This document shows positions 20,996 to 54,629 of a DNA stretch of 64,000 nt, piece after piece. The notes under the pieces are model-generated. The model searched no databases. It was not told where the DNA came from and saw only the letters and a list, made by a program, of their open reading frames with translations. The translations under genes were made by a program, and so were the position numbers. Every line of letters begins with the position of its first letter. The first letter of the stretch is position 1. Source of the DNA: Nitrospirota bacterium (GTDB taxonomy: Bacteria; Nitrospirota; Thermodesulfovibrionia; Thermodesulfovibrionales; UBA9159); the NCBI GenBank assembly GCA_037441365.1, contig JBBISG010000002.1, forward strand, positions 7,462-71,461. Direction: 5' to 3'.

Positions 20996-21124
20996 TTTTG
21001 CCTCCTTTTTCTGCTCGTAAGCGCTATGGCCCCGAGCAAATACCTTCCTAAGTTCTTCCCATGCCCCATGGGAAACCTCCCCTAACCTAAAACTAAACTG
21101 ATACTCCTTTTTATCACCCCCTTC

Positions 21125-22153
21125 TCAGAGCCTCCATTCCCTGGCGACCTGAATGAATTTTTTGATATTCTCGTAGGGAACGGTCGGCGGTATATCACAG
21201 CCTGGCATAAGGACAAAGCCTCCATCGCCTCCAGCGGTCTCGATCACCCTCTTGCTGGTCTCCTCTACCTCCTGGACAGTGCCCTGAAGCATCACCTTTA
21301 CAGGGTCTACATTCCCTGCAAAACACATCTTCCCGTGAAGTATCTCCTTTGCCCTGGCTATGTCGGTCTTATGGTCGAGACTTATACAGCTTGCACCAGT
21401 GAGTGGAAAGAGGTCGAGCCTGTCAGTGGTATTTCCGCATATATGAACAAGCGTATGGACATTGTTAGATTTTGCCCAGTCACTGAACCTCTTAAGATAG
21501 GGCATCGCAAATCTTTCAAATTGCTTCCGCGATATAAGGTCGCCCGATGCTGTGGGGTCAGCGAGGGTTATAACCTCAATGGTGCCGTCCTTTACAAGGG
21601 GCTCATATAAATGAATAAGCAGGTCTGTAGCAAAATCCACAACCTTTTCAACAAATGCAGGTTTTTTAAATGTTGCCTTCATCATGGGTTCCTCTCCAAC
21701 GAGCCTCGCCCCAAGAGTGAAAGGCCCCCATGCAGTCATGGTCACAACATATTCATCGCCGATTCTCGATTTGACGTACCTTAATGCCGTCTTTATCGTT
21801 CTTATAACATCTTCTCTGTCTATTGCCGTAATATCAAGCCTCTGAAGGTCGTCCTCCGAAGATACAAGGGGTGCCTCGAGGTCAGGGGCGCCTATCTCCC
21901 TGAACTTTATGGCGCCTCCGAGGGCAGCCGCATGGAAGTTGTTGTACCCTGAACCAGCATAGACTATGTCACAGAGTAATCTTCCCGACATCTGCACAAG
22001 CATGTCAGACATCTTTGATGCATCCAGTGATAAGTCTTTGAATGTGGTTCCAAAATTATGAATGCTCCACATACCACCGCCGAAGAGCGTTACAGGGACT
22101 CGTTCAGGTTTACCCCCCTCAAATGCCTTTAGAATTATCTCTCTGGGTTTCAT
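21125..22153 (-). CDS. second uroporphyrinogen-decarboxylase-family methyltransferase (paralog of 18373..19410)
   Basis: 342 aa. KPREIILKAFEGGKPERVP, HICGNTTD, PGCDIPPTVPYENIKKF. Confidence 0.75.
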   Translation of the reverse strand: MKPREIILKAFEGGKPERVPVTLFGGGMWSIHNFGTTFKDLSLDASKMSDMLVQMSGRLLCDIVYAGSGYNNFHAAALGGAIKFREIGAPDLEAPLVSSEDDLQRLDITAIDREDVIRTIKTALRYVKSRIGDEYVVTMTAWGPFTLGARLVGEEPMMKATFKKPAFVEKVVDFATDLLIHLYEPLVKDGTIEVITLADPTASGDLISRKQFERFAMPYLKRFSDWAKSNNVHTLVHICGNTTDRLDLFPLTGASCISLDHKTDIARAKEILHGKMCFAGNVDPVKVMLQGTVQEVEETSKRVIETAGGDGGFVLMPGCDIPPTVPYENIKKFIQVAREWRL

Positions 22154-22210
22154 AGTTATCCTCCCTCTATAACCCTATAACCCAATCTTAAAAAGGGTCG
22201 TTGCACTCTT

Positions 22211-22228
22211 AAGGGGCGAAGCCCCTTT
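22211..22228. repeat. short GC hairpin AAGGGGC-GAA-GCCCCTT (copy 1 of 2)
   Basis: A near-identical hairpin AAAGGGGC-AAA-GCCCCTTT lies at 22718-22736. The two bracket the receiver gene. No convincing U-tract on the transcribed (minus) strand. Confidence 0.5.
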
Positions 22229-22292
22229 AAAATCCTGAATAACGGGCATAGATCCATCATGCTAAGGAGTTTGAGAGACCGTCTCTCAACGC

Positions 22293-22649
22293 TCAAGATA
22301 ATGAATTACAGTGATGATGAACATGGCCGATATCATGTATTACCTGTTTAAATTCTTCAAGGTCAATAGGGTTTCCGATACTAAGCGCCTCCATAGAATG
22401 CCCCGTGTCTCCAATAATCACCACCGGTATATCAGGTGACACCGCCCTTATTATCTGGATTGCCTCTCCTGCCGAAAGGCCAAAGGATTCTGAGTCGATT
22501 ATTATAGCAGCATAATTCCACCTCAAGGTCATCTGAACAGCAAGGGCAGGATGATCAACAACCTCTACACTATACCCTTCATCCCTCAATGGCCCATAAA
22601 GACTCTTAACCAGGATCGGATTATGAGAGCATAAAAGAAGATTCTCCAT
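22293..22649 (-). CDS. stand-alone receiver (CheY-like) domain protein. The start is taken at MENLLL, not at the longer ORF
   Basis: The pattern LLLCSHNPILVKSL...IIIDSESFGLSAGEAIQIIRAVSPDIPVVIIGD fits a receiver fold. The acidic pocket is non-canonical (CSH instead of DD). Confidence 0.55.
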   Translation of the reverse strand: MENLLLCSHNPILVKSLYGPLRDEGYSVEVVDHPALAVQMTLRWNYAAIIIDSESFGLSAGEAIQIIRAVSPDIPVVIIGDTGHSMEALSIGNPIDLEEFKQVIHDIGHVHHHCNSLS

Positions 22650-22661
22650 GCTTATGGAATA

Positions 22662-22677
22662 TGCAAATTTAATACCA
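22662..22677 (-). promoter_or_regulatory. sigma-54 type promoter upstream of the receiver gene / methyltransferase genes
   Basis: Minus strand reads TGGTATTAAATTTGCA. Only 12 nt separate it from the ATG at 22649, so the transcript would be nearly leaderless. Confidence 0.45.
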
Positions 22678-22717
22678 TAGCGCCAGCCAGATGGTGAGGC
22701 AGTGAATGACACTTCAT

Positions 22718-22736
22718 AAAGGGGCAAAGCCCCTTT
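22718..22736. repeat. short GC hairpin AAAGGGGC-AAA-GCCCCTTT (copy 2 of 2)
   Basis: See 22211..22228. Confidence 0.5.
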
Positions 22737-22823
22737 AACCCCCCCTCTCCGCCACCTTCACCAATCCCGAATAGCTGAAAAATTACCCACCCTGTGGTAT
22801 TTTTCCCCGGTGAGCATCTCTGT

Positions 22824-23060
22824 CTACCTTTTCCTGATCAAGAATGTGATTGTGCCATTCAGTTCTTTTACCCCGAGGAGTTCATGCCCGAGCCTCTGTA
22901 AGAGGGCCGGAATATCGGCCTTTGATGCGGCATCTGTCGCAATTACCTCGAGTGTCTGTCCTGGTTCAAGCTCGGCCAGCGCCTTCTTTGTCCTTAGCAC
23001 CGGCATGGGGCAGACGAGACCCTTTGCGTCAAGCCTTTTGTCTGCTTTAATATCAGTCAT
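22824..23060 (-). CDS. TusA/SirA-family sulfur-carrier protein
   Basis: 78 aa. DAKGLVCPMPVLRTKKAL carries the CPxP active-site motif. Confidence 0.8.
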   Translation of the reverse strand: MTDIKADKRLDAKGLVCPMPVLRTKKALAELEPGQTLEVIATDAASKADIPALLQRLGHELLGVKELNGTITFLIRKR

Positions 23061-23152
23061 TCTTCCTCCTACTTTCTTCTTTTAATAGCAGTGCGATTAT
23101 ATAGTGCGATAGTCCCCGTGAACCGTGAAACGGAACACGGGTCATAGATTGC

Positions 23153-24022
23153 CTAAAGATAATCTGCGATTGCATCAAGTACCTCACTAACAGCATCTGA
23201 TTTATTCAGGGTATAAAAATGGAGATACCTTACACCGTTGCTTAGCAGGTCTTCGCATTGCTCTATAGCATACTCAACTCCCAGCTTCTTCATTTCATAT
23301 GGTTTATCAAGGGCAGGCTCCATCCTCTCCTTGATAACTTCAGGGATAGTTGTCTTACATAGAGTAGCGAACTCCAATATTTTCCCGTAATCAGTAATAG
23401 GCATAATGCCTGGTATTATAGGGATGGTTATCCCCTTTTTCTCTGCCCTGTCCATAAAATCGTAGTAATATCTGTTATCAAAAAACATCTGGGTAATACC
23501 AAAATCTGCACCTGCATCTATCTTTTGTTTCGTATACTCAATGTCCTTTTCACGGCCCCGAGATTCCTGGTGTCCCTCAGGATAGACAGCTACTGCTATC
23601 GAAAAATAATCGTATCTTCTAACAAACTCAACAAGGTCCTTTGCATATTTAAACTCACCTTTAGTTGGGTCAAAGTTTGGTACATTTTTGGGAGGGTCAC
23701 CCCTCAGGGCAAGGATGTTATCGATGCCATTGGTCATGTAATCCCTGAGGAGAGAATCCATACTTATCTTTGTTGCTCCGATGCAGGTAAGATGAGACAT
23801 CACGGTGAGGTCTGTCTCCTGTTTTATCCAGAGAAGGGTATTCCTCGTTCTATCCTGTGTGCTTCCTCCTGCTCCATAAGTAACAGATACATAGGTTGGA
23901 TCATAATGCCTCAGGGCATTAATAACTTTCATAAAACCTTCTTTTCCCTCCTCAGACCTGGGAGGGAAAAATTCGAAGGAGACCCCCTTTGCCCTTTTCT
24001 TCAATATCTCTCTAATCCGCAT
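23153..24022 (-). CDS. metF: methylenetetrahydrofolate reductase
   Basis: SFEFFPPRSEEG...VSVTYGAGGST...HLTCIG...ILALRGDPP...ITQMFFD. 289 aa. Confidence 0.85.
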   Translation of the reverse strand: MRIREILKKRAKGVSFEFFPPRSEEGKEGFMKVINALRHYDPTYVSVTYGAGGSTQDRTRNTLLWIKQETDLTVMSHLTCIGATKISMDSLLRDYMTNGIDNILALRGDPPKNVPNFDPTKGEFKYAKDLVEFVRRYDYFSIAVAVYPEGHQESRGREKDIEYTKQKIDAGADFGITQMFFDNRYYYDFMDRAEKKGITIPIIPGIMPITDYGKILEFATLCKTTIPEVIKERMEPALDKPYEMKKLGVEYAIEQCEDLLSNGVRYLHFYTLNKSDAVSEVLDAIADYL

Positions 24023-24064
24023 ACATACCTTACCTTAAGCCTATTTTCAAGGTATAACAGACTA

Positions 24065-24080
24065 TGCAAAAAGAATACCA
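24065..24080 (-). promoter_or_regulatory. sigma-54 type promoter upstream of metF
   Basis: Minus strand reads TGGTATTCTTTTTGCA, 42 nt upstream of the metF ATG. Confidence 0.55.
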
Positions 24081-24108
24081 CCTGTCTGTGTGCTGCACAC
24101 AGACAGGT
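24080..24108. promoter_or_regulatory. 14-bp perfect inverted repeat between the divergent metF and activator genes
   Basis: ACCTGTCTGTGTGC-T-GCACACAGACAGGT abuts the -24 element of the metF promoter. A related palindrome GACAGAC-T-GTCTGTC sits at 25862-25876. Confidence 0.45.
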
Positions 24109-24149
24109 ATCTTAATCTTCTCTAAGGGGAAAATGGTATAATAATTAAT

Positions 24150-25658
24150 ATGGGAAATTCCTCTGTTTCGGATATCTTAGACAGGCAAGACAAAAAACTC
24201 TCCATCCTTTATGAGATAGCCCTTACAGTCAGTAAGTCCTTGGATCTGAAAATGATCCTTGACGCTGTCCTCGAAAAGATAATTGCCTTTATGGGTGTGG
24301 ATGCTGGAGTTATCTATGTTATCGAGGAAGAGACACTCGAGATGGTCCCCGTGTCGTTTAAGAACCTTTCTGATGAGGTTGTGAGAGACCTTTGCGAAAA
24401 CAGGGTGAGGGTCGGTGAATGTATGTGTGGCAGTATCGCACAATGCGATAGAGAGGTCATAATCCTCAAGGACGCATCAAAAGACCCGAGATTCACCAGG
24501 GCGACATTGAAAAGGGAGGGGATGGAATTTTATGCCGGTCTGCCGTTGAAATCCAAGGGAAGGGTAGTTGGGGTCTTATGTGTTATTACGCATACGCCCT
24601 ATTACATAGAGGAAGAAAGCCTCGATGTGCTACGCGCTGCGACTGTCCCTATCGGTCTCGCTGTGGAAAATGCAATGCTCTTTGAAAATACAAAGAGGCA
24701 GGCCGATGCAAAGATGAGGTATTACAATTTTGAGGGCATCATCGCAAACAGTCCGAGGATGAAGGATGTCCTGAGCGTTGTAAGGAAGGTAACGGATGTG
24801 CCATCGAGCATATTGATATACGGAGAAAGCGGGACAGGGAAGGAATTGATAGCGCGGGCAATCCATTTTAACAGCATCAGAAGGGATAAGCCATTTATCG
24901 CCGTGAATTGCGCTGCTATTCCCGAGAGCCTCCTGGAATCAGAACTCTTCGGATATGTTAGAGGGGCATTTACGGGTGCTAATGCTGATAAAAAGGGTCT
25001 CTTCGAGGCAGCAGATAGCGGCACCATTTTTCTCGATGAGGTAGAGGCTATGAGTAAAAACCTGCAGGTTAAACTCTTAAGGGTTCTTCAGGAGAGGACG
25101 TTTTATAAGGTCGGCGGCACAACGCCTGTGCCTGTTGATATACGGATTATTGCTGCAACAAACCAGAGCCTCGAGGATGCTGTGAGATCGAAGCAATTCA
25201 GGGAAGACCTCTATTACAGGTTGAACGTTATAAAGATCGAGCTCCCACCCCTTAGAGAAAGGATAGAGGACATCCCTGTACTTGTCAGGTATTTTGTGAA
25301 TAAATTCTCAAAAAAAATAGGCAGAAATATAAGAAGGCTTTCAGATGATGCAATGGATGCGCTCATAAAATACCCGTGGCCAGGAAACATCAGGGAGCTC
25401 GAAAATACCATAGAGCGGGCGGTGGTTATCGCCGAAACCGACGAGATTCGGGGGAAAGACCTTCCACCAGAAATTACCCTCGATTCTAACATCACAAAAG
25501 AGGACCTCTCGCTCAGGAGGGCGATGAAGATCTTGGAGACGGCCCATATCCAGAGGGTTCTGAACCTAACTGGTGGCAATAAGAAAAAGGCTGCAGGCCT
25601 TCTTGGTCTGAATACTGCTACCCTGTGGCGTAAACTACGAAGTGCTGCCAACACATAG
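24150..25658 (+). CDS. sigma-54-dependent transcriptional activator with N-terminal GAF domain and C-terminal HTH
   Basis: GESGTGKELIARAIH (Walker A), ESELFGYVRGAFTGA, FLDEVEAM, C-terminal Fis-type HTH KKKAAGLLGLNTATLWRKL. Confidence 0.85.
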   Translation: MGNSSVSDILDRQDKKLSILYEIALTVSKSLDLKMILDAVLEKIIAFMGVDAGVIYVIEEETLEMVPVSFKNLSDEVVRDLCENRVRVGECMCGSIAQCDREVIILKDASKDPRFTRATLKREGMEFYAGLPLKSKGRVVGVLCVITHTPYYIEEESLDVLRAATVPIGLAVENAMLFENTKRQADAKMRYYNFEGIIANSPRMKDVLSVVRKVTDVPSSILIYGESGTGKELIARAIHFNSIRRDKPFIAVNCAAIPESLLESELFGYVRGAFTGANADKKGLFEAADSGTIFLDEVEAMSKNLQVKLLRVLQERTFYKVGGTTPVPVDIRIIAATNQSLEDAVRSKQFREDLYYRLNVIKIELPPLRERIEDIPVLVRYFVNKFSKKIGRNIRRLSDDAMDALIKYPWPGNIRELENTIERAVVIAETDEIRGKDLPPEITLDSNITKEDLSLRRAMKILETAHIQRVLNLTGGNKKKAAGLLGLNTATLWRKLRSAANT

Positions 25659-25762
25659 ATTGCAGTCGTGCAATACACTTAGAAAAAGATTTTTACTTAT
25701 ATGATAACTCTTTGGGCTGTTTAGTCAGGATACGGCCGTAAAAAAGATTGCATTGTTGCAAT
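25659..25762. promoter_or_regulatory. pair of perfect palindromes ATTGCA-N4-TGCAAT (25659-25674 and 25747-25762); candidate enhancer (UAS) sites
   Basis: ATTGCAGTCGTGCAAT and ATTGCATTGTTGCAAT, 88 bp apart, lie 150-250 bp upstream of the sigma-54 promoter at 25912 and directly after the activator gene. Confidence 0.5.
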
Positions 25763-25911
25763 TGTATATACCCTCTAATCATCCCAGAAAAGACCTGATT
25801 TCTTTTACCTCAAGGTTAATTTATGAAAAAATATGGCCTCTTTGAAGACAGACTTACAGAAGACAGACTGTCTGTCCTCTGTCCAAGGAACACCTTCAGC
25901 GATTTAAATTC

Positions 25912-25927
25912 TGGCAAGTAAATTGCA
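25912..25927 (+). promoter_or_regulatory. sigma-54 (-24/-12) promoter upstream of the osmC-like / dsrE-like (and possibly fdh) genes
   Basis: TGGCAAGTAAATTGCA matches TGGCAC-N5-TTGCW, with GG and GC 12 nt apart. It lies 34 nt upstream of the ATG at 25962. Confidence 0.65.
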
Positions 25928-25961
25928 TGATCTTTTTAAAACCAAAAAGGAGGTAGCGATT

Positions 25962-26495
25962 ATGGCAATAGTAAATGGGCTTGACACAGAGAAATTATTG
26001 AAGGTAGTTGAGACCGTCAAGCAAAACTGGGAGGCAGGAAAGACGGTATGGAAGGCATCGACATCATGGAAGGGCGGTTTCAGGGTCGGGGGATGGTCAA
26101 GGGATTTTGCCCCTGTCCTTTTTGATGAGCCTGAAATGCTGTGCGGGACAAATACGGCGTGCAATCCCGTGGAGATGGTTCTCCAGGCATATGGGGCATG
26201 TTTGACGATCGGCTATGCGATGAACGCTGCTGTCAGAGGGATAAAAATTGATAACATCAAGATCGAACTCGAAGGTGAAATAGACTTGCCAGGATTTCTC
26301 GGGCTCGAACCCCCTGAAAAACTCCATATGGATAAGCTGCCCGGATTCAAGACCATCACCGCAAATGTAAAGATAAAGGCCGATGCTGACGCTAAAACCC
26401 TTAAAGATCTCCATGAACATGTAATTAAAACATCACCTGTGGGTATAACCCTTTCAAGACCTGTAAAGGTGAATACCAATCTGGAGGTTGTTTAG
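25962..26495 (+). CDS. OsmC/Ohr-family protein
   Basis: The ATG at 25962 is preceded by AAAAGGAGG. The length and the pattern ...CNPVEMVLQAYGACLTIGY... fit the OsmC fold. Confidence 0.6.
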   Translation: MAIVNGLDTEKLLKVVETVKQNWEAGKTVWKASTSWKGGFRVGGWSRDFAPVLFDEPEMLCGTNTACNPVEMVLQAYGACLTIGYAMNAAVRGIKIDNIKIELEGEIDLPGFLGLEPPEKLHMDKLPGFKTITANVKIKADADAKTLKDLHEHVIKTSPVGITLSRPVKVNTNLEVV

Positions 26496-26903
26496 ATGCA
26501 GGAGACTGTGAGCGGCGGTTCTGCTGAGAATAAAAACGAGGACCTCTTTGTCGTTCTCTGTGCATCAGGTTTTGATAGGGTTGCAAATGCCCGTTCAGCC
26601 CTTATGTTCGCCACACTCGCTGCATCAGCCAACTATAGAACGATTCTTTTCTGTGTGCAGAACGCAGTAGATGTCATGGTCAAGGGCGCTATAGAGAAAA
26701 ATGAAACCCCTGTGCCTGGTGCCCCTACACTTGCACAGAGGCTGCGTGAGGCGATGGAGATGGGCGTTGAGATCCAGTGCTGTTCCCAGACGATTGACAA
26801 CAAGAGGCTTACAGAGAATGACCTCCTCACAGGCATAAAGGTAGCAGGGGCTATGAACCTCATAGCCCTTGCTACAAGGGCAAAGGGAACGCTTTCTTTT
26901 TAG
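26496..26903 (+). CDS. DsrE/DsrF-like family protein
   Basis: 135 aa. LFVVLCASGFDRVANARSALMFATLAAS...EIQCCSQTI...GAMNLIAL resembles the DsrE-like fold. Confidence 0.55.
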   Translation: MQETVSGGSAENKNEDLFVVLCASGFDRVANARSALMFATLAASANYRTILFCVQNAVDVMVKGAIEKNETPVPGAPTLAQRLREAMEMGVEIQCCSQTIDNKRLTENDLLTGIKVAGAMNLIALATRAKGTLSF

Positions 26904-27082
26904 TCCTTAATATAAATATAAGAGCTTGCAAGGAAACCCATAGGACGGAAAGGGATTAACATCATAATCCGTATCGAGGGTTCTTTGCGGAGTTTATCCT
27001 GAGCGAAAATATGAGATTCTTCGCTACGCTCAGAATGACAGGCGAAGGGTTCAGAGCCGCGAATAAAGCATTCTAAAATACC

Positions 27083-29167
27083 ATGAATAAGATCCTTACC
27101 CTCTGTCCTTACTGTGGGTGTGGTTGTGGCATCCATCTTCATGAAGAGAATGGACTTATTACAGGTGTCTCTCCAAGCAGGTCGCATCCAGTAAACAAAG
27201 GAAGTCTATGTGTAAAGGGCTGGAATGCCCATGAATTCATTCACCATCCTGATAGACTGAAATATCCGGTTATTAAGAAAGACGGAGAACTGAAAAGGAC
27301 TACATGGAAAGAGGCCCTCGATTTTATTGCGGCACGGCTTAATGAAATCAGGGAAAGATACGGATCTGACTCCATAGGGATCCTCAGTTCAGCAAAATGC
27401 ACAAATGAGGAAAACTACCTGATGATGAAGTTTGCAAGGGCTGTGCTGGGAACAAATAACATAGACCACTGTGCAAGACTCTGCCATTCCTCAACAGTTG
27501 GTGGTCTTGCAGCAGCCTTTGGTTCAGGTGCCATGACCAACTCCATCATCGAGATTGCCGATGCGAAGGTTCTCTTTGTTATAGGTTCAAATACCACAGA
27601 GCAGCACCCAATGATAGCAATGCATATGCTTGAGGCCGTTGACAGGGGAGCCACATTGATTGTGGCAGACCCGAGGAGGACAAAGATAGCCGAGTTTGCC
27701 CATACCCATTTGAGGCACAGGGGCGGCACAGATGTTGCCCTCCTTATGGGGATAATGAATGTCATAGTAAACGAAGGGCTTGTTGATGTGGATTTTGTCA
27801 GACGAAGGACAGAGAACTTTGATATCTTTGAAGAGTCACTCAGGCGATATCCCCCGGTGGTCGTTGAGAGTATTGCAGGTGTGAAGGCCAGTGATATAAG
27901 GAGGGTGGCAAGAATCTATGCCATGGAGAAACGCTCAATGCTCTTTTATGCTATGGGAATTACCCAGCATGTAACTGGGGTCGACAATGTAAGGGCATGT
28001 GCAAACCTCGTTATGCTTACAGGTCATATAGGACTGCCAATGTCAGGGATTAACCCCCTGCGGGGGCAGAACAATGTGCAGGGGGCCTGTGACATGGGTG
28101 CTCTGCCAGATTTCTATACGGGTTATCAGAGAGTAACAGACCCCATGGCAAGAAGGAAGTTCGAAAGGGCGTGGAGAAAGAGATTGCCGCAAAAACCTGG
28201 ATTGACCTTGATGGAGATGGTGGACAGGGCATACGAGGGCAGTCTCAAGGCAATGTATATTATGGGAGAAAATCCTATGATTTCTGACCCACACCTTAAT
28301 CATTTAAGGGATGCCATGGAGAGGCTTGAATTTTTAGTAGTTCAGGACATCTTTCCTAATGAGACCTCAGAATATGCAGATGTGATACTCCCGGCTGCAT
28401 CCTATGCAGAAAAGGACGGGACATTTACGAACACGGAACGGCGAGTTCAATTGATTAGAAAGGCAATCGAACCCATAGGTGAATCAAGACCTGACTGGGA
28501 GATCATATGTGACCTTTCAAGCAGGATGGGATATAAAATGAATTATAGAGGTACATACGAAATAATGGAAGAGATTGCACTCTTAACGCCCTCATATGGT
28601 GGGATACTCCATCACCGGCTCAATGAAGGCTTTGGTTTACAATGGCCCTGTCCTGATAGTAATCATCCGGGGACACAGTATCTTCATAGAAAAAAGTTTG
28701 CCAGAGGTCTTGGCACCTTTATTACAGTTGATTTTATACCACCTGATGAGCCACCTGATGAAACATATCCTTTACTTCTTACCACGGGCAGGATTTACTT
28801 CCGTTACCACACTCGAACCATGTGCGGTAGAACATCTGTGCTTGAAAGGGAAGAGCCCGAATGTTTTGTGGAGATAAATCCTGTAGATGCAGAAAAACTC
28901 GGCATAAAGGATAGGTCAATGGTAAGGGTAATGTCCAGAAGGGGGTCCATTGAAGTGAGAGCCTATGTCACAAACAGAACACCTGAAGGAATTGTCTTTA
29001 TCCCCTTCCATTTCAGGGAAGCTACTGTAAATATTCTAACAAATCCTGCTACAGACCCAACAGCAAAGATACCTGAATATAAGGTCTGTGCTGTAAAAGT
29101 AGAGCCGCTTCTTAAAGGGCAAAAAATAGAGAGGCCACATCTTGTAGAGGCAATGAGAAATACATGA
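27083..29167 (+). CDS. fdhA: formate dehydrogenase catalytic subunit (molybdo/tungstopterin bis-MGD oxidoreductase), Cys-type
   Basis: N-terminal 4Fe-4S motif CPYCGCGCG...CVKG. Active-site context HCARLCHSSTV has Cys where selenoproteins carry TGA/Sec. 694 aa. Confidence 0.8.
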   Translation: MNKILTLCPYCGCGCGIHLHEENGLITGVSPSRSHPVNKGSLCVKGWNAHEFIHHPDRLKYPVIKKDGELKRTTWKEALDFIAARLNEIRERYGSDSIGILSSAKCTNEENYLMMKFARAVLGTNNIDHCARLCHSSTVGGLAAAFGSGAMTNSIIEIADAKVLFVIGSNTTEQHPMIAMHMLEAVDRGATLIVADPRRTKIAEFAHTHLRHRGGTDVALLMGIMNVIVNEGLVDVDFVRRRTENFDIFEESLRRYPPVVVESIAGVKASDIRRVARIYAMEKRSMLFYAMGITQHVTGVDNVRACANLVMLTGHIGLPMSGINPLRGQNNVQGACDMGALPDFYTGYQRVTDPMARRKFERAWRKRLPQKPGLTLMEMVDRAYEGSLKAMYIMGENPMISDPHLNHLRDAMERLEFLVVQDIFPNETSEYADVILPAASYAEKDGTFTNTERRVQLIRKAIEPIGESRPDWEIICDLSSRMGYKMNYRGTYEIMEEIALLTPSYGGILHHRLNEGFGLQWPCPDSNHPGTQYLHRKKFARGLGTFITVDFIPPDEPPDETYPLLLTTGRIYFRYHTRTMCGRTSVLEREEPECFVEINPVDAEKLGIKDRSMVRVMSRRGSIEVRAYVTNRTPEGIVFIPFHFREATVNILTNPATDPTAKIPEYKVCAVKVEPLLKGQKIERPHLVEAMRNT

Positions 29168-29187
29168 AGGTGAAGGCGTAAGTATTA

Positions 29188-30294
29188 GTGGGTGAGGTAA
29201 CAGTGGGTGAATGGATACTGGATAAAAATCATCTCTCATACTGGCTGAGACAGTTAAGAAAAGACAGAGAGCTCATTGGCCCATTAAGGAATGAAGGCAA
29301 GGATATAGTTTTCAGTACTGTTGATAAGATCCACGAGCTTGTTCTTGACTGTCCTGCCTTACTTCCTTCGCCAAAGGAGTTCCTTTTTCCCCAATATGAA
29401 GCCATGCTTAGATATACTCCCAAAAATTTTTTGGGGTCCCCGACAAAGAAAGGCACAGGTATCAGCAGGAAAGCCGTGAATAGTGGTACAGATATCATTG
29501 ACCTGGCGGACAGAAAAGAGAGGGTTGTCTTTGGGATAAGGTCATGTGATATCTCTGCCCTGAGTCTTCTGGACAGATTTTATCTTGAAGGGTACAGAGA
29601 CCTTTATTACGAGCACAGGAGAAAAAATACCCTCTTTATATCAGTAGTCTGCAACAATCCAGACCCTACATGTTTCTGTATTGGCCTCGGAACAGGACCT
29701 TATCTTGAAAAGGGCTTTGATATCCAGATGACTGACCTCGGTGACAGGTATTTTTTACAGACAGACTCTGCTGAAGGAACAAGGACACTTAGGTCCATGG
29801 GTTTTCTTTTTCGAAAGCCTAAGAAACTGGATTATGAAGACCAGTATGAGGTTTTTCTCAGTTCAAAGGCAAGATTCCAGAAAAGGATAAACCTCGAGGG
29901 TATAAGACAGATTATTCTTTCAGGGAGCTTAAAGGATGATTTTTGGGAAAAGGTTGCCCTGAGGTGTTTTGAATGCGGTGGCTGTGTCTATAACTGCCCC
30001 CTCTGCACATGCTTCACTGTGACTGACAGGGAATATACTGAGGGTATTGAGAGGATAAGATTATGGGACACATGCCTTTTTAAGGGATTCACACGAATGG
30101 CAGGGGGATTGCTTCCCAATGAAAGAATGGTTCTCAGAACCAAGAGGTGGTATTATCATAAATTGATTTATTATCCGGAGACACTGGGTGGTTTCGGGTG
30201 CGTTGGTTGCGGCAGGTGCACCATCACCTGTCCCGGGAAAATTGATATGGCCACTATCACAACAAAGATAAAGGGTCTTAGCCTAAATGGATAA
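29188..30294 (+). CDS. 4Fe-4S cluster subunit, AsrA / sulfhydrogenase HydB-like
   Basis: CFECGGCVYNCPLCTCF and CVGCGRCTITCPG motifs. 368 aa. GTG start. Confidence 0.6.
   Translation: MGEVTVGEWILDKNHLSYWLRQLRKDRELIGPLRNEGKDIVFSTVDKIHELVLDCPALLPSPKEFLFPQYEAMLRYTPKNFLGSPTKKGTGISRKAVNSGTDIIDLADRKERVVFGIRSCDISALSLLDRFYLEGYRDLYYEHRRKNTLFISVVCNNPDPTCFCIGLGTGPYLEKGFDIQMTDLGDRYFLQTDSAEGTRTLRSMGFLFRKPKKLDYEDQYEVFLSSKARFQKRINLEGIRQIILSGSLKDDFWEKVALRCFECGGCVYNCPLCTCFTVTDREYTEGIERIRLWDTCLFKGFTRMAGGLLPNERMVLRTKRWYYHKLIYYPETLGGFGCVGCGRCTITCPGKIDMATITTKIKGLSLNG
29418..29441. repeat. P-element-like short variant P3 inside the FeS-subunit gene
   Basis: TCCCAAAAATTTTTTGGGGTCCCC (loop-less palindrome), translated as PKNFLGSP. 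Confidence 0.5.
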
Positions 30295-31198
30295 AACAAT
30301 GAATAGGTGGCAAAGTAACAGTGACGAAAGAAAAGTAAAGAAAGGCGCAGGTATTAGTAAAGAAAACATCTACATACCTATCAATGGAAGAATCGAGGAG
30401 GTAATACAGCTGACTGATGATGTAAGGCTTTTCAGGGTTAGACCCGATACCCCGTTGAATTACAGTCCAGGACAGTTTTTTATGGTTTCGGTCTGGGGTG
30501 CTGGTGAGGTTCCGATATCTGTAGCATCTCTGTTCGGTGGCGTAATTAACGGTTCTGAAGAAAAGGGGATACTGGAACTCTGTATCAGAAAGACAGGACT
30601 TGTGACTACCGCAATCCACTCCTTACAAAAAGGGCAATCAGTTGGATTAAGAGGACCCTATGGCAATGGCTTTCCCCTTGATATATCAAAAGGCAGGGAT
30701 GTGGTTTTGGTTGCAGGAGGAATTGGCATAGCCCCTCTGAGACCTCTCATTCAGTGGTTTATAAAGAATAGGCACAGAGATGGAGAGGTAACCCTCCTTT
30801 ATGGTTCAAGGACACCTGATGATGTGATGTTTATGAATGAGGTGGAGAGATGGAGGGCTGGAGGCATAAAGGTGGTTCTTACTGTTGATAGAGGCAACGA
30901 AAACTGGAACGGTCATGTGGGTCTTGTGACAGGCCATTTGCATAAGGTAAATACAGACTTTAAAAAGGCTGTAGCTTATATGTGTGGTCCTGAGGTGATG
31001 ATAAAGGCTGCCATGAGGGAGCTCTTTTCCCTTGGAATGTCTGAGGAGCTCATAATTGCTACCCTTGAGGCACATATGAAATGCGGGGTTGGTAAGTGTG
31101 GTCATTGCTATGCAGGCTCCAAATACATATGCACCGATGGTCCGGTTTTTTCCTGTAGAGAGATTAAAGAAAATTCTATCTGGGAAATGTCAATCTGA
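30287..31198 (+). CDS. FAD/NAD(P)-binding plus 2Fe-2S subunit, AsrB / HydG / PyrK-like
   Basis: Ferredoxin-reductase-type fold (GQFFMVSVWG, VLVAGGIGIAPLRPL) with C-terminal CGVGKCGHCYAGSKYICTDGPVF. Confidence 0.65.
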   Translation: MDKTMNRWQSNSDERKVKKGAGISKENIYIPINGRIEEVIQLTDDVRLFRVRPDTPLNYSPGQFFMVSVWGAGEVPISVASLFGGVINGSEEKGILELCIRKTGLVTTAIHSLQKGQSVGLRGPYGNGFPLDISKGRDVVLVAGGIGIAPLRPLIQWFIKNRHRDGEVTLLYGSRTPDDVMFMNEVERWRAGGIKVVLTVDRGNENWNGHVGLVTGHLHKVNTDFKKAVAYMCGPEVMIKAAMRELFSLGMSEELIIATLEAHMKCGVGKCGHCYAGSKYICTDGPVFSCREIKENSIWEMSI

Positions 31199-31205
31199 GC
31201 CTTTT

Positions 31206-31434
31206 ATGGAAAGACTTTCTGTTTTAGAGATCTTAGACAGGCAAAACAAAAAACTCTCCCACACTCGCTGCATCAGCCAACTATAGAACGATTCTTTAAC
31301 GTAACAAATGGGAAGTGAAGACTTCCTATTTCCTACTTCTTACTTCCTATGTGCCTGGTGCCCCTACACTTGCACAGAGGCTGCGTGAGGCGATGGAGAT
31401 GGGCGTTGAGATCCAGTGCTGTTCCCAGACGATT
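31206..31434 (+). pseudogene. composite gene remnant: first 18 codons of an activator paralog fused to two fragments of the dsrE-like gene, interrupted by a hairpin repeat
   Basis: 31206-31259 is about 81% identical to 24150-24203 (my hand alignment gives 10 mismatches in 54). 31259-31297 is identical to 26611-26649. 31350-31434 is identical to 26711-26795. Confidence 0.8.
31310..31350. repeat. H-element H6 interrupting the dsrE-like gene remnant
   Basis: GGGAAGTGAAG - ACTTCCT ATTTCCT ACTTCTT ACTTCCT. Same unit type as H10. Confidence 0.65.
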
Positions 31435-31439
31435 CCGAT

Positions 31440-32819
31440 TCAGGCAGAACCCTTGATCTTGATACCGTATTTCTTGAGCTTAAGATAAAGGGTTTTTCTA
31501 TCGATACCGAGTATCTGGCTCGCCCTCGATCGATTTTCGTTTGCCTCCTTGAGGACCCTGAGTATATGGTCTCTTTCCATATCCTCAAGCGAAAGAGGTG
31601 TCCCAGAAAAATCCTGCGGCAGCCATGGGTGGAGAGGTGCTGTCTCCCCCAGCGGAAAGACCGCTATAGAAAGGGATTCAGGCCCTATATTTTCCGAGTC
31701 GCAAAGGATTACAGCCCTCTCAATGACATTTTCGAGCTCTCTGACATTGCCGGGCCAGGGGTAGTTAATGAGTATCTCTACCGCCTCCATGGTGAATCCC
31801 AGAATGGACTTTGATAGTTTCTGGCTGTATTTCTTCAAAAAGTATCTTGAGAGCTCAGGGATATCTTCCCTTCTTTCTCTGAGCGGTGGGATGTTTATGT
31901 TTATGACATTCAACCTGTAATACAAATCCTGTCTGAATTTTCCCTCTTTGATGAGTTCCGTCAAGTCTCTGTTAGTAGCCGCAATTACCCTTACATCAAC
32001 AGTAATGGTCTTATTACCACCTACCCTCCTGAATTCACCTGAGTCAAGAAAGCGTAGAAGTTTTGCCTGCAGTCCCAGGGGCATCTCACCGATCTCATCA
32101 AGGAAAAGCGTTCCCTTATCAGCCACCTCAACGATGCCATACTTTGTTTGATAGGCATTCGTAAATGCGCCTTTCTCATGACCAAACAATTCAGATTCTA
32201 TCAGGTTTTCTGAAAAGGTGGCACAGTTCAGGGCTATAAATGGAAGTGTATTCCTTTTGCTGTACTGCCATATAAGATTGGCGACAAGTTCTTTACCTGT
32301 CCCGCTTTCTCCCTGAATAAAAGCTGTAGAATCAGTCGGCGCAATCTTTTTGATTAATGCAAGGATATCTTCGAGCTTTTTGCTTTTATATACAAACTCT
32401 GCCGGTGATTCTTTCCTGACAAGTTCCTGTTGAAACAGTTCACTCTTCTTTTTCAGCCTTCCATATTCATAGGCCCTGCTTATTACAATAATGAGTTCCT
32501 CAAGTTTATAAGGCTTGGTGAGATAATCATAGGCGCCATTCTTCATGGCCTCAACAGCCGTCTCGACAGTGGCCCTGCCTGTCAGGACGATGATAACTGG
32601 AGCTGCAGGGTCTTCCTTCAGCCTCCTCATAAGTGAAATGCCGTCGATCCCCGGCATCACAATATCGAGAAGGATAACATCAAAGGATTTATCCTTAAGC
32701 AGCTCAAGGGCCGCTTCTCCATCAGGTGCCACCTCTGTGTAAAACCCCTTTCTCGTAAGCTCTTTCTTGAGCAGTCTTCTTAAGGGTTCTTCATCATCAA
32801 CTACAAGTATCCTTATCAC
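31440..32819 (-). CDS. NtrC-family sigma-54-dependent response regulator (REC-AAA+-HTH), GAFTNA variant
   Basis: ILVVDDE...DVILLDIVMPGIDG, GESGTGKELVA, ESELFGHEKGAFTNA, C-terminal HTH RSRASQILGIDRKTLYLKLKKYG. Confidence 0.85.
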   Translation of the reverse strand: MIRILVVDDEEPLRRLLKKELTRKGFYTEVAPDGEAALELLKDKSFDVILLDIVMPGIDGISLMRRLKEDPAAPVIIVLTGRATVETAVEAMKNGAYDYLTKPYKLEELIIVISRAYEYGRLKKKSELFQQELVRKESPAEFVYKSKKLEDILALIKKIAPTDSTAFIQGESGTGKELVANLIWQYSKRNTLPFIALNCATFSENLIESELFGHEKGAFTNAYQTKYGIVEVADKGTLFLDEIGEMPLGLQAKLLRFLDSGEFRRVGGNKTITVDVRVIAATNRDLTELIKEGKFRQDLYYRLNVININIPPLRERREDIPELSRYFLKKYSQKLSKSILGFTMEAVEILINYPWPGNVRELENVIERAVILCDSENIGPESLSIAVFPLGETAPLHPWLPQDFSGTPLSLEDMERDHILRVLKEANENRSRASQILGIDRKTLYLKLKKYGIKIKGSA

Positions 32820-32840
32820 TGTAATGGCACCACCAATCTC

Positions 32841-35357
32841 CTATTTGGGTTTGGGATAAAGTTCTCCCTTTGCCTTTAACTTTATGATGAATGTCGTCCC
32901 CTTTCCTTCTTCGCTCTCCACATCGATGGTCCCACCGTGTTCTTCCACGATCTTGAGGCCGATCGCAAGCCCAAGCCCTGTCCCCTCACCGACAGGCTTT
33001 GTTGTAAAAAATGGATCGAATATTTTATCGATGAGATCACCTCTGATCCCTATACCGTTGTCCTTAATGGAGACCCTGATCCAATTGTCAGCCGTCTGCA
33101 ATCCCAGGGCTTCTACTGGATGGTCCTTCTCTGTTTTAATAACAATGCTTCCACCCTCAGGTGTGAAATAGAGGGAATTGATAATTATGTTCATAAAGAG
33201 CTGCCTCAGACTGCCAGGGTCTGCATATATCTTTGGTAAATCTCTGTTCAGCTTTAGCTCTATGTTGTGCTTGAGTCGTGTGGCCTTATGATTCACCAGA
33301 AGTATTACCTCCTTTATGAGTTCATTGATGTCTATTTCCCGAAATGCAGCTCCCTGCGGCCCTGCAAATTCGAGCAGGCTCTGCAATATTTTCTTGCATC
33401 TGAATATCTCGTTATGAATTGTCCCAAGATACTCTGGAAAATCCTCAAATTCCTCGATCTGTAACAGCCTTTCATCCTTGGACCTTTCAAGAAGAGCCTC
33501 TGAATAACCTGCAATTATACTGAGTGGGTTATTGATCTCGTGGGCAATGCCAGCAGCAAGTGTTCCCAGGGATGCAAGCTTGTCTGCCCTTATAAGCTGT
33601 TGTTCAAGAAGCCTTTGAGAGGTAACATCCTTCAGATAGTGAACGATTGCATAAAGTCGCCCATCTTCATCAATCAATGGATAGGCCCAGAAATGGAAGA
33701 TATTTCCACCCGTACCTTTAAGCTCTCTGAAAGATGGCCTTCCGGTTAAAAGGGTGTCCGAACACAGACATCCAGGGCTATGAATCCCTAACCTATCGAG
33801 GATCTCTTTACATTTTTTCCCGGATACCCCAAATGTCGAAAGGCCTGATTTTTCTAAAAGGGTGCGATTAGCACGAATGACGCATTGACCTTCATCCTCG
33901 ATCCATACCATATCTGTAATCGCATCAAAGGTCCTTTCCCATTCCTTTTTCTCCCTTGATATCTCTTCAAAAAGAAGGGCGTTTTCAAGGGCTATGGATA
34001 TATGTTTTGCGACAGGGAGTAATATGTCGAGGTCCTTTTCCGAGTATCTAAAAGGCACTGTGCTATAGAGATTGAAAACACCGAGTATCTTATCCTGGAA
34101 GAGTGGTATGCTGATAATAGACCTGATGCCTTCATCAAGCAACTTCCTGTCGTCAGGGAATCTTATTCCCGTTGAAAGATCGTAGTTTATCAATGGCTGA
34201 TTATTTTTAAGGACCCACCCTGCAGTCGTGCCCTCAATGGGGATGCGCACACCTTTCTTCAGATCGGTCTTTAAAGAGGTATCGAGGGCGAAGATAAACA
34301 GGTCATTCTCGTTTTCATCAAAAAGTAAGATGCTTCCACTGTCGTAATCAATAAGCCTCTTTATCTCGTGCATCATTATCCTGAAGACGGTGCCTATGCT
34401 CAGACTTGAGTTGATAATGCCACTCAGCTCATTAATAAGTTCTATCTGCCTCATCTTCTCCTGCAGCTGCCCGATCAGTTTCGCATTCTCAATCGCAACG
34501 CCAAGTTGGCTCCCTATAGTCTTCAAGAGCTGGATATCCATGGCAGTAAAATACGATGCCTTCTGACTCGCCACACCAAGGACCCCCAAAATAGTCCCCT
34601 TAGAAGATATCGGTACGCCTGCTATACTTTTTATCTTCGTATCCCTGCATGTCGCCCTCGGATCAGCATGGGCATCCTTGACAAGCAATGGCCTGTTGGA
34701 AGAAAAAACCTTACCGCTGAACGACTCTCCGGGTTTTAACCGTTTATCCCTCCCACAGATGTCAACAGTTACGCCTTTCTGGACCGCAGGGGTGAGATCC
34801 CTGGTCTTATCATCAATCAGGTATATCCATCCACCATCTGTTTCCATAAGTAAGAGTAACATATCAATAGTTTCCTGCATTATCTTCTCGGTGTCGCTAT
34901 CCCCTGTAAGTATCTTTGCAAAGGTATCGAAGATAGAAAGTTCCTTTGTCCTCTGGGATGCCTTCATTTGAAGTCTCTTCTGGTCAGAGATGTCCTGTAT
35001 TACAATGAGGGTCTGTATGTCTCTGTATCGAGGGATAACAGATACCCTTGCAAGAAAGAACTCACCGTTTTTCTTCTTGCAGAAGGACTCGAAATGAATG
35101 CCGCACAGGCTAACATCTTCGGGGAAGGATGAAACAGGTGACAAAGGGTATGATAATTCACAGACGGAGTCGGGACCGGATACAATAACTTCAGTGATGG
35201 TTTTACCTGTGATTTCATCAGGGGTGTAATGAAATATACCTTGAGCCGCAATATTGAGCGCTACAATCCTTTGTCCCTCTGTTATAAAAACAGGTATTGT
35301 GAGAGAATCAAAAATGTTTAGCAGGATATCAGATTCTTTGTCAGGCAAAATTCTCAT
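32841..35357 (-). CDS. multi-domain sensor histidine kinase (PAS-GAF-GAF-PAS-HisKA-HATPase)
   Basis: H-box GIAHEINNPL; N, G1 and G2 boxes (...DNGIGI...GTGLGLAI...). 838 aa. No clear TM segment. Confidence 0.8.
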   Translation of the reverse strand: MRILPDKESDILLNIFDSLTIPVFITEGQRIVALNIAAQGIFHYTPDEITGKTITEVIVSGPDSVCELSYPLSPVSSFPEDVSLCGIHFESFCKKKNGEFFLARVSVIPRYRDIQTLIVIQDISDQKRLQMKASQRTKELSIFDTFAKILTGDSDTEKIMQETIDMLLLLMETDGGWIYLIDDKTRDLTPAVQKGVTVDICGRDKRLKPGESFSGKVFSSNRPLLVKDAHADPRATCRDTKIKSIAGVPISSKGTILGVLGVASQKASYFTAMDIQLLKTIGSQLGVAIENAKLIGQLQEKMRQIELINELSGIINSSLSIGTVFRIMMHEIKRLIDYDSGSILLFDENENDLFIFALDTSLKTDLKKGVRIPIEGTTAGWVLKNNQPLINYDLSTGIRFPDDRKLLDEGIRSIISIPLFQDKILGVFNLYSTVPFRYSEKDLDILLPVAKHISIALENALLFEEISREKKEWERTFDAITDMVWIEDEGQCVIRANRTLLEKSGLSTFGVSGKKCKEILDRLGIHSPGCLCSDTLLTGRPSFRELKGTGGNIFHFWAYPLIDEDGRLYAIVHYLKDVTSQRLLEQQLIRADKLASLGTLAAGIAHEINNPLSIIAGYSEALLERSKDERLLQIEEFEDFPEYLGTIHNEIFRCKKILQSLLEFAGPQGAAFREIDINELIKEVILLVNHKATRLKHNIELKLNRDLPKIYADPGSLRQLFMNIIINSLYFTPEGGSIVIKTEKDHPVEALGLQTADNWIRVSIKDNGIGIRGDLIDKIFDPFFTTKPVGEGTGLGLAIGLKIVEEHGGTIDVESEEGKGTTFIIKLKAKGELYPKPK

Positions 35358-35456
35358 ATTTATATTATTATATCAAGGTAATAAAAAGATTTGAAGACGC
35401 GAGGGGGCACACCTTTGTGAGAGGTGACCCTGGGGCAAAGTGGGTTAGGAGGGCAG

Positions 35457-36863
35457 ATGTCAGAAGACAGAGGGCAAGGGGCAGAGAGAATTATAGTTAT
35501 AGGCATTGGTTATAAGCCGCTCGATAAAAGGGCGCGAAAGATTATCTCCACTGCCAACATTATCCTTACATCCAATAGGCTCTGTGAAGTCTTTAGGGAA
35601 TATGAGGAATATGAGGCAGTTAAAAATAAGATCAGGCTAATAAATAATGTGGACGAGACGATTGAATTTATTAGAGCGACAGTGTGGCAGATGGGGTCCC
35701 CGGAGAGGTGTCGCAGACCTTCTGTGGCAGAGTGCGGTAGAGCGACAGTTGTCCTCCTCGCCTCTGGAGATCCGATGTTTTTTGGCATAGGCAGAAGGAT
35801 TATCAGAGAGTTTGGAAAGGAGTGTGTGGAGATAATCCCTGACCTTTCAAGCATTCAGATGGCATTCAGCCGCATCAAGGAACCCTGGGATGATGCATTC
35901 CTTATGAGCCTTCACGGAGGCCCTGACCCTGAAAAGAGAAGGAGGGTAGCAGAGAGGAGGCTTACCTACGAGATAAAGGATATCCCGTCTCTGGCTGAGA
36001 GGTATGATAAAATAGCCATTCTCACTGATAAAGAAAACAATCCTTCTGTCATCGCAAGAGGGCTTTTAAAGCATTCGGCCTTAAAAATATATGTCTGTGA
36101 ACGACTCGGTTATTCCGATGAAAACATCATCGAAGGCACACCAGAGGAGATTGCAGGGATGACCTTCAGAGACCCAAATGTGGTGATAATAGTGAAAGAG
36201 GGCGATGCTGAGGGGGTTAATACTCGATCCGACGATTTACCAATTCAATCATTACCGGGCACCCCTTCACCGTCCCTGCCTCTCTTTGGTTTAACCGCCG
36301 ATGAGATTTACCATTCCCGTGGTCTTATAACAAAGGATGAGGTAAGGGCAATTGTTATTCATAAGTTAAGACCATTTCAGAAGATGGTCTTCTGGGACAT
36401 AGGTGCAGGCTCAGGCTCTGTATCTCTGGAGATCTCAAGGTTTTTTCCTGATGCAAGGGTCTATGCCATAGAGAGAGACACTGAACAGATAGGACACTTA
36501 AGCTTGAATACAAAAATGTTTAATACCGGTATTAATGTAATAAACGGTGAAGCACCAGAAGTCCTCCATGGACTTCCATCACCGGACAGGGTATTTATTG
36601 GTGGCAGTGGTGGAAGACTCACGGATATCCTTGAGTATGTTAACCAGAGAATGCTTAATGGTATTATTACAATAAATGCCACAACCCTTGAGACACTGAA
36701 CAGGGCAATAGAGGTATTAAGTGACAATAGTTATACAATTGATGTGATTGAGGCGAACATATCAAGACTAAAGCCATTAGGAGATTCTCAGCACCTTTCA
36801 GCAGAAAACCCTGTATTTATTATTACAGGAATAAAAGGAGGGGGCTTCAAAGTAGTGCAGTAG
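35457..36863 (+). CDS. cbiET: cobalt-precorrin-6B C5,C15-methyltransferase / decarboxylase, fused CbiE-CbiT (CobL type)
   Basis: The ATG at 35457 is preceded by AGGAGG; the ORF track starts at the GTG at 35424. CbiE part: IIVIGIGYKP...LLASGDPMFFG. CbiT part: LITKDEVRAIVIHKLRP...FWDIGAGSGSVSLE. Confidence 0.8.
   Translation: MSEDRGQGAERIIVIGIGYKPLDKRARKIISTANIILTSNRLCEVFREYEEYEAVKNKIRLINNVDETIEFIRATVWQMGSPERCRRPSVAECGRATVVLLASGDPMFFGIGRRIIREFGKECVEIIPDLSSIQMAFSRIKEPWDDAFLMSLHGGPDPEKRRRVAERRLTYEIKDIPSLAERYDKIAILTDKENNPSVIARGLLKHSALKIYVCERLGYSDENIIEGTPEEIAGMTFRDPNVVIIVKEGDAEGVNTRSDDLPIQSLPGTPSPSLPLFGLTADEIYHSRGLITKDEVRAIVIHKLRPFQKMVFWDIGAGSGSVSLEISRFFPDARVYAIERDTEQIGHLSLNTKMFNTGINVINGEAPEVLHGLPSPDRVFIGGSGGRLTDILEYVNQRMLNGIITINATTLETLNRAIEVLSDNSYTIDVIEANISRLKPLGDSQHLSAENPVFIITGIKGGGFKVVQ
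35693..35730 (+). repeat. degenerate P-element P4 inside cbiET, flanked by a 12-bp direct repeat
   Basis: GGGGTCCCCGGAGAGGTGTCGCAGACCTTCTGTGGCAG. TAGAGCGACAGT occurs at 35672-35683 and again at 35738-35749. Confidence 0.7.
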
Positions 36864-39539: not shown

Positions 39540-39558
39540 TACCCCCCTATCTTAACGT

Positions 39559-54623: not shown

Positions 54624-54629
54624 TTAACC

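Follow-up and report, generated by a model that had tools for sequence, protein, structure and literature searches.

A formate dehydrogenase (FDH) unit in an uncultured Nitrospirota lineage raises the question of how identical pieces of one short host gene came to lie on both of its sides. The locus belongs to a 64,000-nt stretch of contig JBBISG010000002.1 (assembly GCA_037441365.1, positions 7,462 to 71,461 of the forward strand), hereafter the window, whose own numbering is used throughout. On the left of the FDH unit lies an intact DsrE-like gene (dsrE; 26496..26903, + strand, 135 aa; Pfam DsrE, with full-length alignment to orthologues in the related contigs L083 and L084), and on the right, between the last FDH gene (FdhC) and a convergent NtrC-type response regulator gene (RR; 31440..32819, − strand, 459 aa, by Pfam), lies a 229-nt composite that includes two pieces of dsrE. 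We favor the view, as somewhat the more probable one, that the composite is a non-functional recombination scar which marks the right end of a strain-variable FDH islet, and that it originated as a duplication or circle-integration joint and then decayed.

A self-comparison of the window by repeat search and direct alignment revealed that 26611-26649 and 31259-31297 (39 nt), and likewise 26711-26795 and 31350-31434 (85 nt), are 100% identical, confirming the initial annotation in that the FDH block is bracketed by identical direct repeats of dsrE. Exact matches of 39 nt and 85 nt rule out a chance origin in 64 kb, and each repeat is present in only two copies across the window. The left copies, both on the + strand, correspond to dsrE nt 116-154 and nt 216-300. 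The composite spans the full gap from the FdhC stop (31198) to the stop codon of RR (31440-31442); its pieces leave uncovered just 7 nt next to FdhC and 5 nt next to RR. Read along the + strand, it follows a 7-nt spacer (31199..31205) and begins with 18 codons of an activator gene (31206..31259); the 39-nt patch (31259..31297), a 52-nt segment consisting of a hairpin (31306-31331) and a heptamer array of four ACTTCCT units (31321-31349; segment 31298..31349), and the 85-nt patch (31350..31434) come after it, and TTCCGAT (31433..31439, +) adjoins the RR stop. The open reading frame (ORF) of the composite encodes MERLSVLEILDRQNKKLSHTRCISQL followed by a stop codon, matching the earlier description, and the parts themselves were also as first noted: an activator start at about 81% identity, two dsrE pieces at 100%, and a hairpin between them.

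Base-by-base comparison showed an abrupt loss of identity at every patch border, which defines four joints: J1 (31258/31259), where nt 54 of the activator fragment meets dsrE nt 116; J2 (31297/98) and J3 (31349/50), at the borders of the hairpin segment; and J4 (31434/31435). All four have little or no microhomology (0–1 nt at J1; 2 nt, TT, at J4). The dsrE patches keep the order and orientation that they have in dsrE, with a spacing of 52 nt vs. 61 nt in the native gene, and the 52-nt segment stands for dsrE nt 155-215. The right copy thus lacks dsrE nt 155-215 and also nt 301-408, that is, the 3′ 108 nt.

The 18 codons had been attributed to the resident GAF/sigma-54 activator gene upstream of the FDH unit (ACT; 24150..25658, +; Pfam GAF, Sigma54_activat and HTH_8), with which 31205-31259 is 82% identical over 55 nt (24149-24203; 44/54 nt in the coding part). 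A search with the protein of the resident activator retrieved a homologue, P0059, whose N-terminus (MESPSVLEILDRQNKKLS) agrees with the 18 codons of the composite at 16/18 residues. P0059 is encoded on contig L082 of Joint Genome Institute (JGI) metagenome 3300010938, in the order FdhA-FdhB-FdhC, 7 nt, activator (ACT′), OsmC′, molybdopterin oxidoreductase, ferredoxin, OsmC″ and ABC transporter. The window from 27052 to 31258 aligns with L082 46-4205 as a single block of 89.5% identity, which begins at the fdhA leader, continues past FdhC and the 7-nt spacer (of the same length in both) and enters ACT′; this block stops exactly at 31258, that is, at J1. Over the 54 nt of the fragment, 51 (94%) match ACT′ of L082 vs. 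44 that match the resident ACT. These comparisons show that the 18 codons are the 5′ stump of a second activator gene, ACT′, which followed FdhC in an ancestor or donor, and that the resident ACT is not their parent. Since the 54 nt belong with ACT′ and not with the gene at 24150, the contrast between 81% and 100% identity is no longer a puzzle.

The dsrE patches, by comparison, are young copies of this genome's own dsrE. At all 18 sites in the patches where the dsrE of the window differs from that of L083/L084, the patches carry the state of the window, and the absence of any difference in 124 nt excludes a divergence of 5% or more (P < 0.002). As the patches match the resident dsrE at 18/18 lineage-specific sites, the gene conversion that had been proposed to account for the 81%/100% contrast is not needed; for the other 54 nt, the wrong partner had been compared.

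The search for variants without the FDH block, which the initial annotation had recommended, was productive. Contigs L083 and L084 carry MTHFR (−), ACT-OsmC-DsrE, RR (−) with its histidine kinase gene (HK, −) and tetrapyrrole methylase genes, with no FDH and with DsrE about 33 nt from RR; their activator is 95% identical in protein sequence to that of the window, and the aligned flanks are 87.6-93% identical at the nucleotide level. Much closer are L148 (run SRR24079482; 99.4%) and L147 (SRR17771277; 98%), as measured over RR/HK, in which the 3′ end of dsrE (its stop codon and one T) is followed by a 47-nt spacer and the RR stop, again with no FDH. Comparison with L147/L148 and L083/L084 places the segment missing from such empty-site strains at 26905..31438 (+). 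Contig L146, from the same run as L148, contains the dsrE 3′ end, the 148-nt spacer that precedes the fdhA leader in the window, and FdhABC at 99.2% identity to the window; its last sequence in common with the window is the 7-nt spacer, and it departs exactly at the would-be ATG of ACT′ into 7-8-nt repeat sequence. L146 and L148 start at the same 30-mer, a de Bruijn branch directly after the dsrE stop codon. A further contig, L150 (SRR11582146; 99.55% to the window), has a CTTCCGA-type array before the RR stop, whose final unit is the TTCCGAT that it shares with the window. At least four junction states therefore exist within about 1–2% sequence divergence, and the FDH block appears from these alignments to be a strain-variable islet, an insertion relative to close relatives.

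The slot that separates DsrE from RR is also a long-standing variable site. A scan of metagenome contigs with DsrE, whose best match was 75% at the amino acid level and which missed the closest relatives, so that it informs on slot variability only, returned distant relatives with unrelated cargo in the slot (L105 10414-15669; L121 10357-18991; L125 10378-12897; L133 3052-7035), including BsuBI/PstI restriction-modification genes with Mrr, a porin, a glycosyltransferase and a dehydrogenase. In two other relatives (L085 9528-14087 and L131 1057-2248) there are two or three DsrE paralogues per locus, in the arrangement DsrE-ACT-OsmC-DsrE-x-DsrE-RR, indicating that dsrE duplication around the module recurs. 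We also observed that L082 1-38, consisting of the dsrE 3′ end plus one base, is identical to L084 12657-12695 from the same metagenome and then diverges; either a dimorphism of FDH presence and absence or a two-locus arrangement thus occurs in a sister lineage of about 90% identity as well.

The joints of the composite were compared with independently assembled Logan contigs (k=31, run SRR11582170) that were found by exact-protein look-up. L149 corresponds to window 20150-26640, L001 to 29317-31288 and L145 to 31405-35532, with 0, 1 and 1 mismatches, respectively, and each has one end lying exactly 30 nt (k-1) into a repeat copy: L149 in the 39-nt copy on the left, L001 in the one on the right and L145 in the 85-nt copy on the right. 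J1 is crossed by L001 and J4 by L145. Since a k-mer graph breaks k-1 nt inside true repeats, the repeats and the two outer joints are present in the reads; and since the parent sequences share 0–2 nt at the joints, the graph could not have made them without reads containing them. An exact match to the intact DsrE protein was absent from the k=31 assembly of this run, as expected if the repeats break the gene, and exact look-ups of the OsmC, FdhA and P0242 proteins likewise gave no match. Of the three junctions singled out in the initial annotation, 31259 (J1) is thus supported, as is the outer joint J4, while 31297 and 31350 have no independent support.

From the repeats, the source of each piece, the empty-site alleles and the reads across J1 and J4, we infer an order of events and their enzymology as follows. 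The FDH genes would have moved, or been inherited, as one collinear piece together with the start of ACT′. J1 ties ACT′ nt 54 to dsrE nt 116, the last and the first position of one 4,648-bp unit (26611-31258), and two events could produce such a joint. In one, an L082-like ancestor would have duplicated the unit in tandem and then lost the remainder of copy two along with the downstream island; in the other, a circular copy of the unit would have entered an empty-site genome through one homologous crossover in the dsrE of that genome (Campbell-type). Either would leave a complete dsrE on the left and a 5′-truncated dsrE on the right in direct orientation, and the two copies would be identical because they were the same gene at the same time as the source. 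In the decay of copy two, dsrE nt 155-215 would have been swapped for a hairpin and heptamer element of a type common in the genome, and dsrE from nt 301 onward would have been deleted to within 5 nt of the RR stop. Native order, orientation and near-native spacing of the patches favor the decay of a longer duplicate over independent patching. A history of duplication or insertion followed by deletion, as first proposed, is thereby supported; the accompanying claim, that a second activator-osmC-dsrE module lost about 2.4 kb, is not.

Several points weigh against this history. The right dsrE copy does not reach the end of the homologous segment, so secondary decay has to be assumed, and a relative with an undecayed second dsrE copy was not found, which leaves the intermediate hypothetical. 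The microhomology at J1 is just 0–1 nt for an illegitimate joint, and the swap of 61 nt of dsrE for a 52-nt hairpin array is unexplained. J2 and J3 are backed by the assembly of the window only. Differences between the window and L083 number 18/124 inside the patches vs. 23/284 outside, which is not significant (P = 0.07); we accordingly rejected gene conversion from the composite into dsrE as the source of such an excess. Finally, contigs with and without FDH co-occur in three samples and break at the dsrE 3′ end (L082 with L084 in JGI 3300010938; L146 with L148 in SRR24079482; a branch at the start of L147). This co-occurrence fits mixed strains, and it also fits a second FDH locus bearing a copy of the dsrE 3′ end in the relatives; FDH located between dsrE and RR is directly shown in the window only.

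The strongest competitor, which we nevertheless regard as rather unlikely, is a single complex repair in which the remainder of an L082-like island, beginning with ACT′ codon 19 and reaching almost to the RR stop, was deleted and the break was mended by replication. Serial template switching of the kind known as microhomology-mediated break-induced replication or fork stalling and template switching (MMBIR/FoSTeS) would then have picked up the 39 and 85 nt from dsrE, which lies 4.6 kb upstream, together with a hairpin element of other origin. The scarcity of microhomology at all four joints (0–1 nt at J1, TT at J4) would suit such a process, as would patches that are short and come from a nearby source. 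Three strains of 99% identity each have their own repeat-rich right junction, suggesting repeated breakage, and 12 nt away the RR 3′ end carries a 6-nt slippage duplication. The patches, however, kept the order, orientation and near-native spacing of dsrE, for which a decayed duplicate is the simpler explanation, and the source of the 52 nt was not found, the only relative being a related hairpin at 54570-54618.

The model of the initial annotation, in which a diverged second activator-osmC-dsrE module lost about 2.4 kb and its dsrE remnants were homogenised by gene conversion, has little probability in our view. In its favor, L082 does have a second activator and then an OsmC gene after FdhC, L085 and L131 have several DsrE paralogues per locus, and the slightly higher divergence from L083 inside the patches is a possible hint of conversion (P = 0.07). 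The second module of L082, the one such relative available, has no DsrE after ACT′, however, and so does not supply the intact second module with DsrE downstream of FdhC that the model predicts. The 18 codons trace to an ACT′ that is intact in L082 at the same 7-nt spacing, and not to a collapsed copy of the upstream module. Nor are the remnants equally diverged from that module (81% vs. 100%), the probability of 0 differences in 124 nt at 18.5% divergence being essentially zero. The model also needs conversion tracts whose ends coincide exactly with the four joints, with 0 mismatches in 124 nt and the adjacent 54 nt left at 81%, and the 61 nt between the patches have been replaced by unrelated sequence.

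An assembly artefact, that is, a chimeric path through the strain variants of a metagenome, is very improbable. The source is indeed a metagenome, related samples hold several strain variants of the junction, and the de Bruijn graph permits a second traversal that places the hairpin inside the left dsrE, with J2 and J3 not independently seen. Against it, the joints share 0–2 nt, the independent k=31 assembly crosses J1 and J4 and breaks k-1 nt into the repeats at three places while missing the intact DsrE protein, as the repeats predict, and an ordinary read is longer than either repeat (39 and 85 nt). The chimera that had been named as a possible refutation hence did not materialise for the two outer joints. 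A functional RNA, in which a bidirectional terminator would end the RR mRNA with 85 nt antisense to the dsrE mRNA and the FDH mRNA with sense copies, coupling RR expression to the OsmC-DsrE-FDH operon, is suggested by the 85-nt patch, which extends from 5 nt past the RR stop as far as a stable hairpin with a terminator-like appearance on either strand, and by the related hairpin between another convergent gene pair, but it is likewise very improbable, given that the composite is not conserved (strains of 98-99.5% identity are without the patches), has no Rfam match, and as a whole folds with z = -1.4 vs. shuffled sequences.

The initial annotation had also described the FDH block as prone to excision by homologous recombination. 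The repeats could recombine with each other, yet dsrE would be lost in the process and the natural empty site would not be restored: the computed excision products are a 117-aa DsrE chimera when the 85-nt copies recombine and a 51-aa stump when the 39-nt copies do. In strains that lack FDH, dsrE is intact and the native 47-nt spacer is in place, so these strains are not products of excision between the repeats.

Other classes of element were considered and rejected. A transposon, insertion sequence or integrative element would require features that we did not find: there is no mobility gene and there are no terminal inverted repeats, and the repeats, at 39 and 85 nt, come from a host coding sequence and do not constitute a target-site duplication. 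No transposase or integrase was detected in the FDH block, the Pfam matches within 26905-31438 being the three FDH genes only, and no inverted repeat was found at the ends of this segment. The GC content of the block shows no anomaly and the nearest FDH relatives are all from Nitrospirota, which argues against transfer from a distant donor. The repeat pair of a diversity-generating retroelement, whose copies differ at adenine positions, does not fit either, given 0 differences in 124 nt; no search of the window for a reverse transcriptase gene was made. A structured RNA across the whole composite was dismissed as well, its fold being no better than that of shuffles (z = -1.4).

The hairpin within 31298-31349 has an 11-bp stem and a computed energy of -15.1 kcal/mol (z = -4.3). 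The 52 nt that contain it are unique in the window as a string, as is their 17-nt core, and we therefore rejected the hairpin as an exact copy of a dispersed repeat, the only looser relative being at 54570-54618 (−). This second hairpin has the same 13-nt arms (AAATGGGAAGTGA / ACTTCCTATTTCC), a 22-nt loop and an energy of -23.7 kcal/mol, and sits between the convergent ORFs 53625-54542(+) and 54717-58799(−); matches to a hairpin with these 13-nt arms number two vs. 0.03 expected, for the 64 kb of the genome that are visible. Rfam at gathering scores gave no match in the whole window, and relaxed scans of 26850-27120 and 31150-31500 returned nothing credible, one snoRNA match at E = 0.18 being noise.

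Hairpins and short arrays are frequent elsewhere in the window. A palindromic hairpin family of about 40 nt, GGGG(T/A)CCCCAAAAA(A/G)TC...GA(C/T)TTTTTGGGG, occurs in both orientations at 711-747, 831-873, 39754-39796, 43378-43420, 48037-48073, 54359-54401, 54624-54666 and 55708-55750; it is REP-like (resembling repetitive extragenic palindromes) or terminator-like, is unrelated in sequence to the hairpin at 31306-31331, and probably corresponds to the other hairpins numbered in the initial annotation. There are also many tandem arrays with a 7-8-nt period, whose unit differs from array to array; examples, apart from that of the composite at 31321-31349, are found at 2355-2414, 5144-5235, 36851-36911, 39558-39623, 55927-55956, 58302-58333 and 58540-58571. 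Such arrays occur at every variant of the FdhC/RR junction, with ACTTCCT in the window, AGAGCAGT and TGGAGTA in L146, and CTTCCGA in L150. It is conceivable, though we consider it improbable, that the arrays and hairpins are more than passive filler and that a specific process of break repair or filler synthesis in Thermodesulfovibrionia left them as its footprint, generating such arrays and also copying nearby sequence, here the dsrE patches. If true, this process would make intergenic slots like that between dsrE and RR hot spots for the gain and loss of cassettes.

The block from 27083 to 31198 (+) is predicted to be a cytoplasmic NAD(P)-linked formate dehydrogenase unit. It comprises FdhA (27083-29167; TIGR01591, 871 bits vs. 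a cutoff of 666), an Fe-S subunit (29188-30294) resembling the ShyB/AsrA (sulfhydrogenase beta-like) electron-transfer subunits, and the FAD/NAD subunit FdhC (30287-31198), which resembles the AsrB/HydG (sulfhydrogenase gamma-like) electron-transfer subunits. The three-gene unit is kept in many Nitrospirota metagenome-assembled genomes (MAGs). In a scan of genome contigs with FdhA the best match was 84% at the amino acid level, the closest FDH relatives were all Nitrospirota, and none of the MAGs recovered had ACT-OsmC-DsrE upstream of FDH. The OsmC-like gene (25923..26495, +; Pfam OsmC) lies between ACT and dsrE.

Between dsrE and the fdhA leader is a spacer of 148 nt (26904..27051, +), present in the window and in L146 and not in L082, where the distance from the dsrE stop to the fdhA leader is 8 nt. 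The spacer holds a stem, TGAGCGAA...TTCGCTACGCTCA; it matches nothing in Rfam and resembles none of the loci retrieved for comparison, and neither a sigma-54 promoter nor a riboswitch was found in it. A sigma-54 promoter-like site (TGGCAAGTAAATTGCA, 25912-25927), with 1 mismatch to TGGCAC-N5-TTGCW and identified by consensus match only, is placed after the sigma-54 activator gene and at the head of the OsmC-DsrE(-FDH) transcription unit; such matches occur in the window at chance level overall, and only the position of this one is suggestive. Upstream of the activator on the minus strand (window 20000-24022; L083 1-9873) lies a set of methyl-branch one-carbon (C1) genes which by Pfam includes MTHFR, TusA, two URO-D/MtaA-like methyltransferases, MtrH, a B12-binding protein, RACo and FolD. 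On the other side of the composite, 12 nt from it, a 6-nt tandem duplication (CTTGAT CTTGAT, 31452-31463) in the 3′ end of RR accounts for its 459 aa here vs. 457 aa in L083, L084, L147, L148 and L150.

In this uncultured Nitrospirota lineage FDH, which is key to C1 and acetogenic-type metabolism, appears as an accessory cassette that varies between strains; it is located downstream of a putatively sigma-54-controlled OsmC-DsrE pair and beside methyl-branch C1 genes, where a formate dehydrogenase is metabolically sensible. For genome-resolved metagenomics this advises caution, since a MAG of this group may have or lack FDH as a strain trait or because contigs break at the repeats. In addition, the scar provides a worked example of how the end points of k-mer contigs separate real joints from assembly chimeras.

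When compared to known systems, the structure is an ordinary recombination scar, an instance of a known event type that reveals no new element or mechanism. It resembles the joint of a tandem duplication or Campbell-type integration in that it links the end of the unit (ACT′ nt 54) to its start (dsrE nt 116), with a full target gene on one side and an identical, direct, 5′-truncated copy on the other, and in that empty-site alleles exist; it differs in that the second copy is incomplete (61 nt replaced and the 3′ 108 nt lost) and no intermediate or circle was observed. Homology-facilitated illegitimate recombination, described in naturally transformable bacteria such as Acinetobacter and Streptococcus pneumoniae, usually deletes recipient DNA and uses 3-10 nt of microhomology. 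Like its products, the locus has variable DNA beside a homologous anchor (dsrE and upstream sequence) with the other end joined illegitimately, compatible with exchange between related strains; unlike them, it has a duplicated recipient dsrE and 0–1 nt at J1. J4 has 2 nt, and the native 47-nt spacer of the recipient is lost. MMBIR/FoSTeS, documented mainly in eukaryotes, similarly yields a patchwork of short, nearby-derived segments with minimal homology, whereas the patches here keep their native order and spacing. The 52-nt insert, a hairpin plus a 7-nt array in a window where intergenic 7-8-nt arrays are numerous and the arms of the hairpin recur in a second one, recalls the short tandemly repeated repetitive (STRR) heptamers of cyanobacteria and REP-like elements, which are intergenic hairpins; in the present case the units vary between arrays, the phylum is another one and no associated transposase was seen. 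In its fixed flanks (DsrE on one side, RR-HK on the other), in cargo that is present, absent or different, and in its lack of a mobility gene and of a GC anomaly, the locus is like the flexible genomic islets, from which it is set apart by a cargo that is a core-metabolism FDH next to methyl-branch C1 genes and by a scar that is unusually legible.

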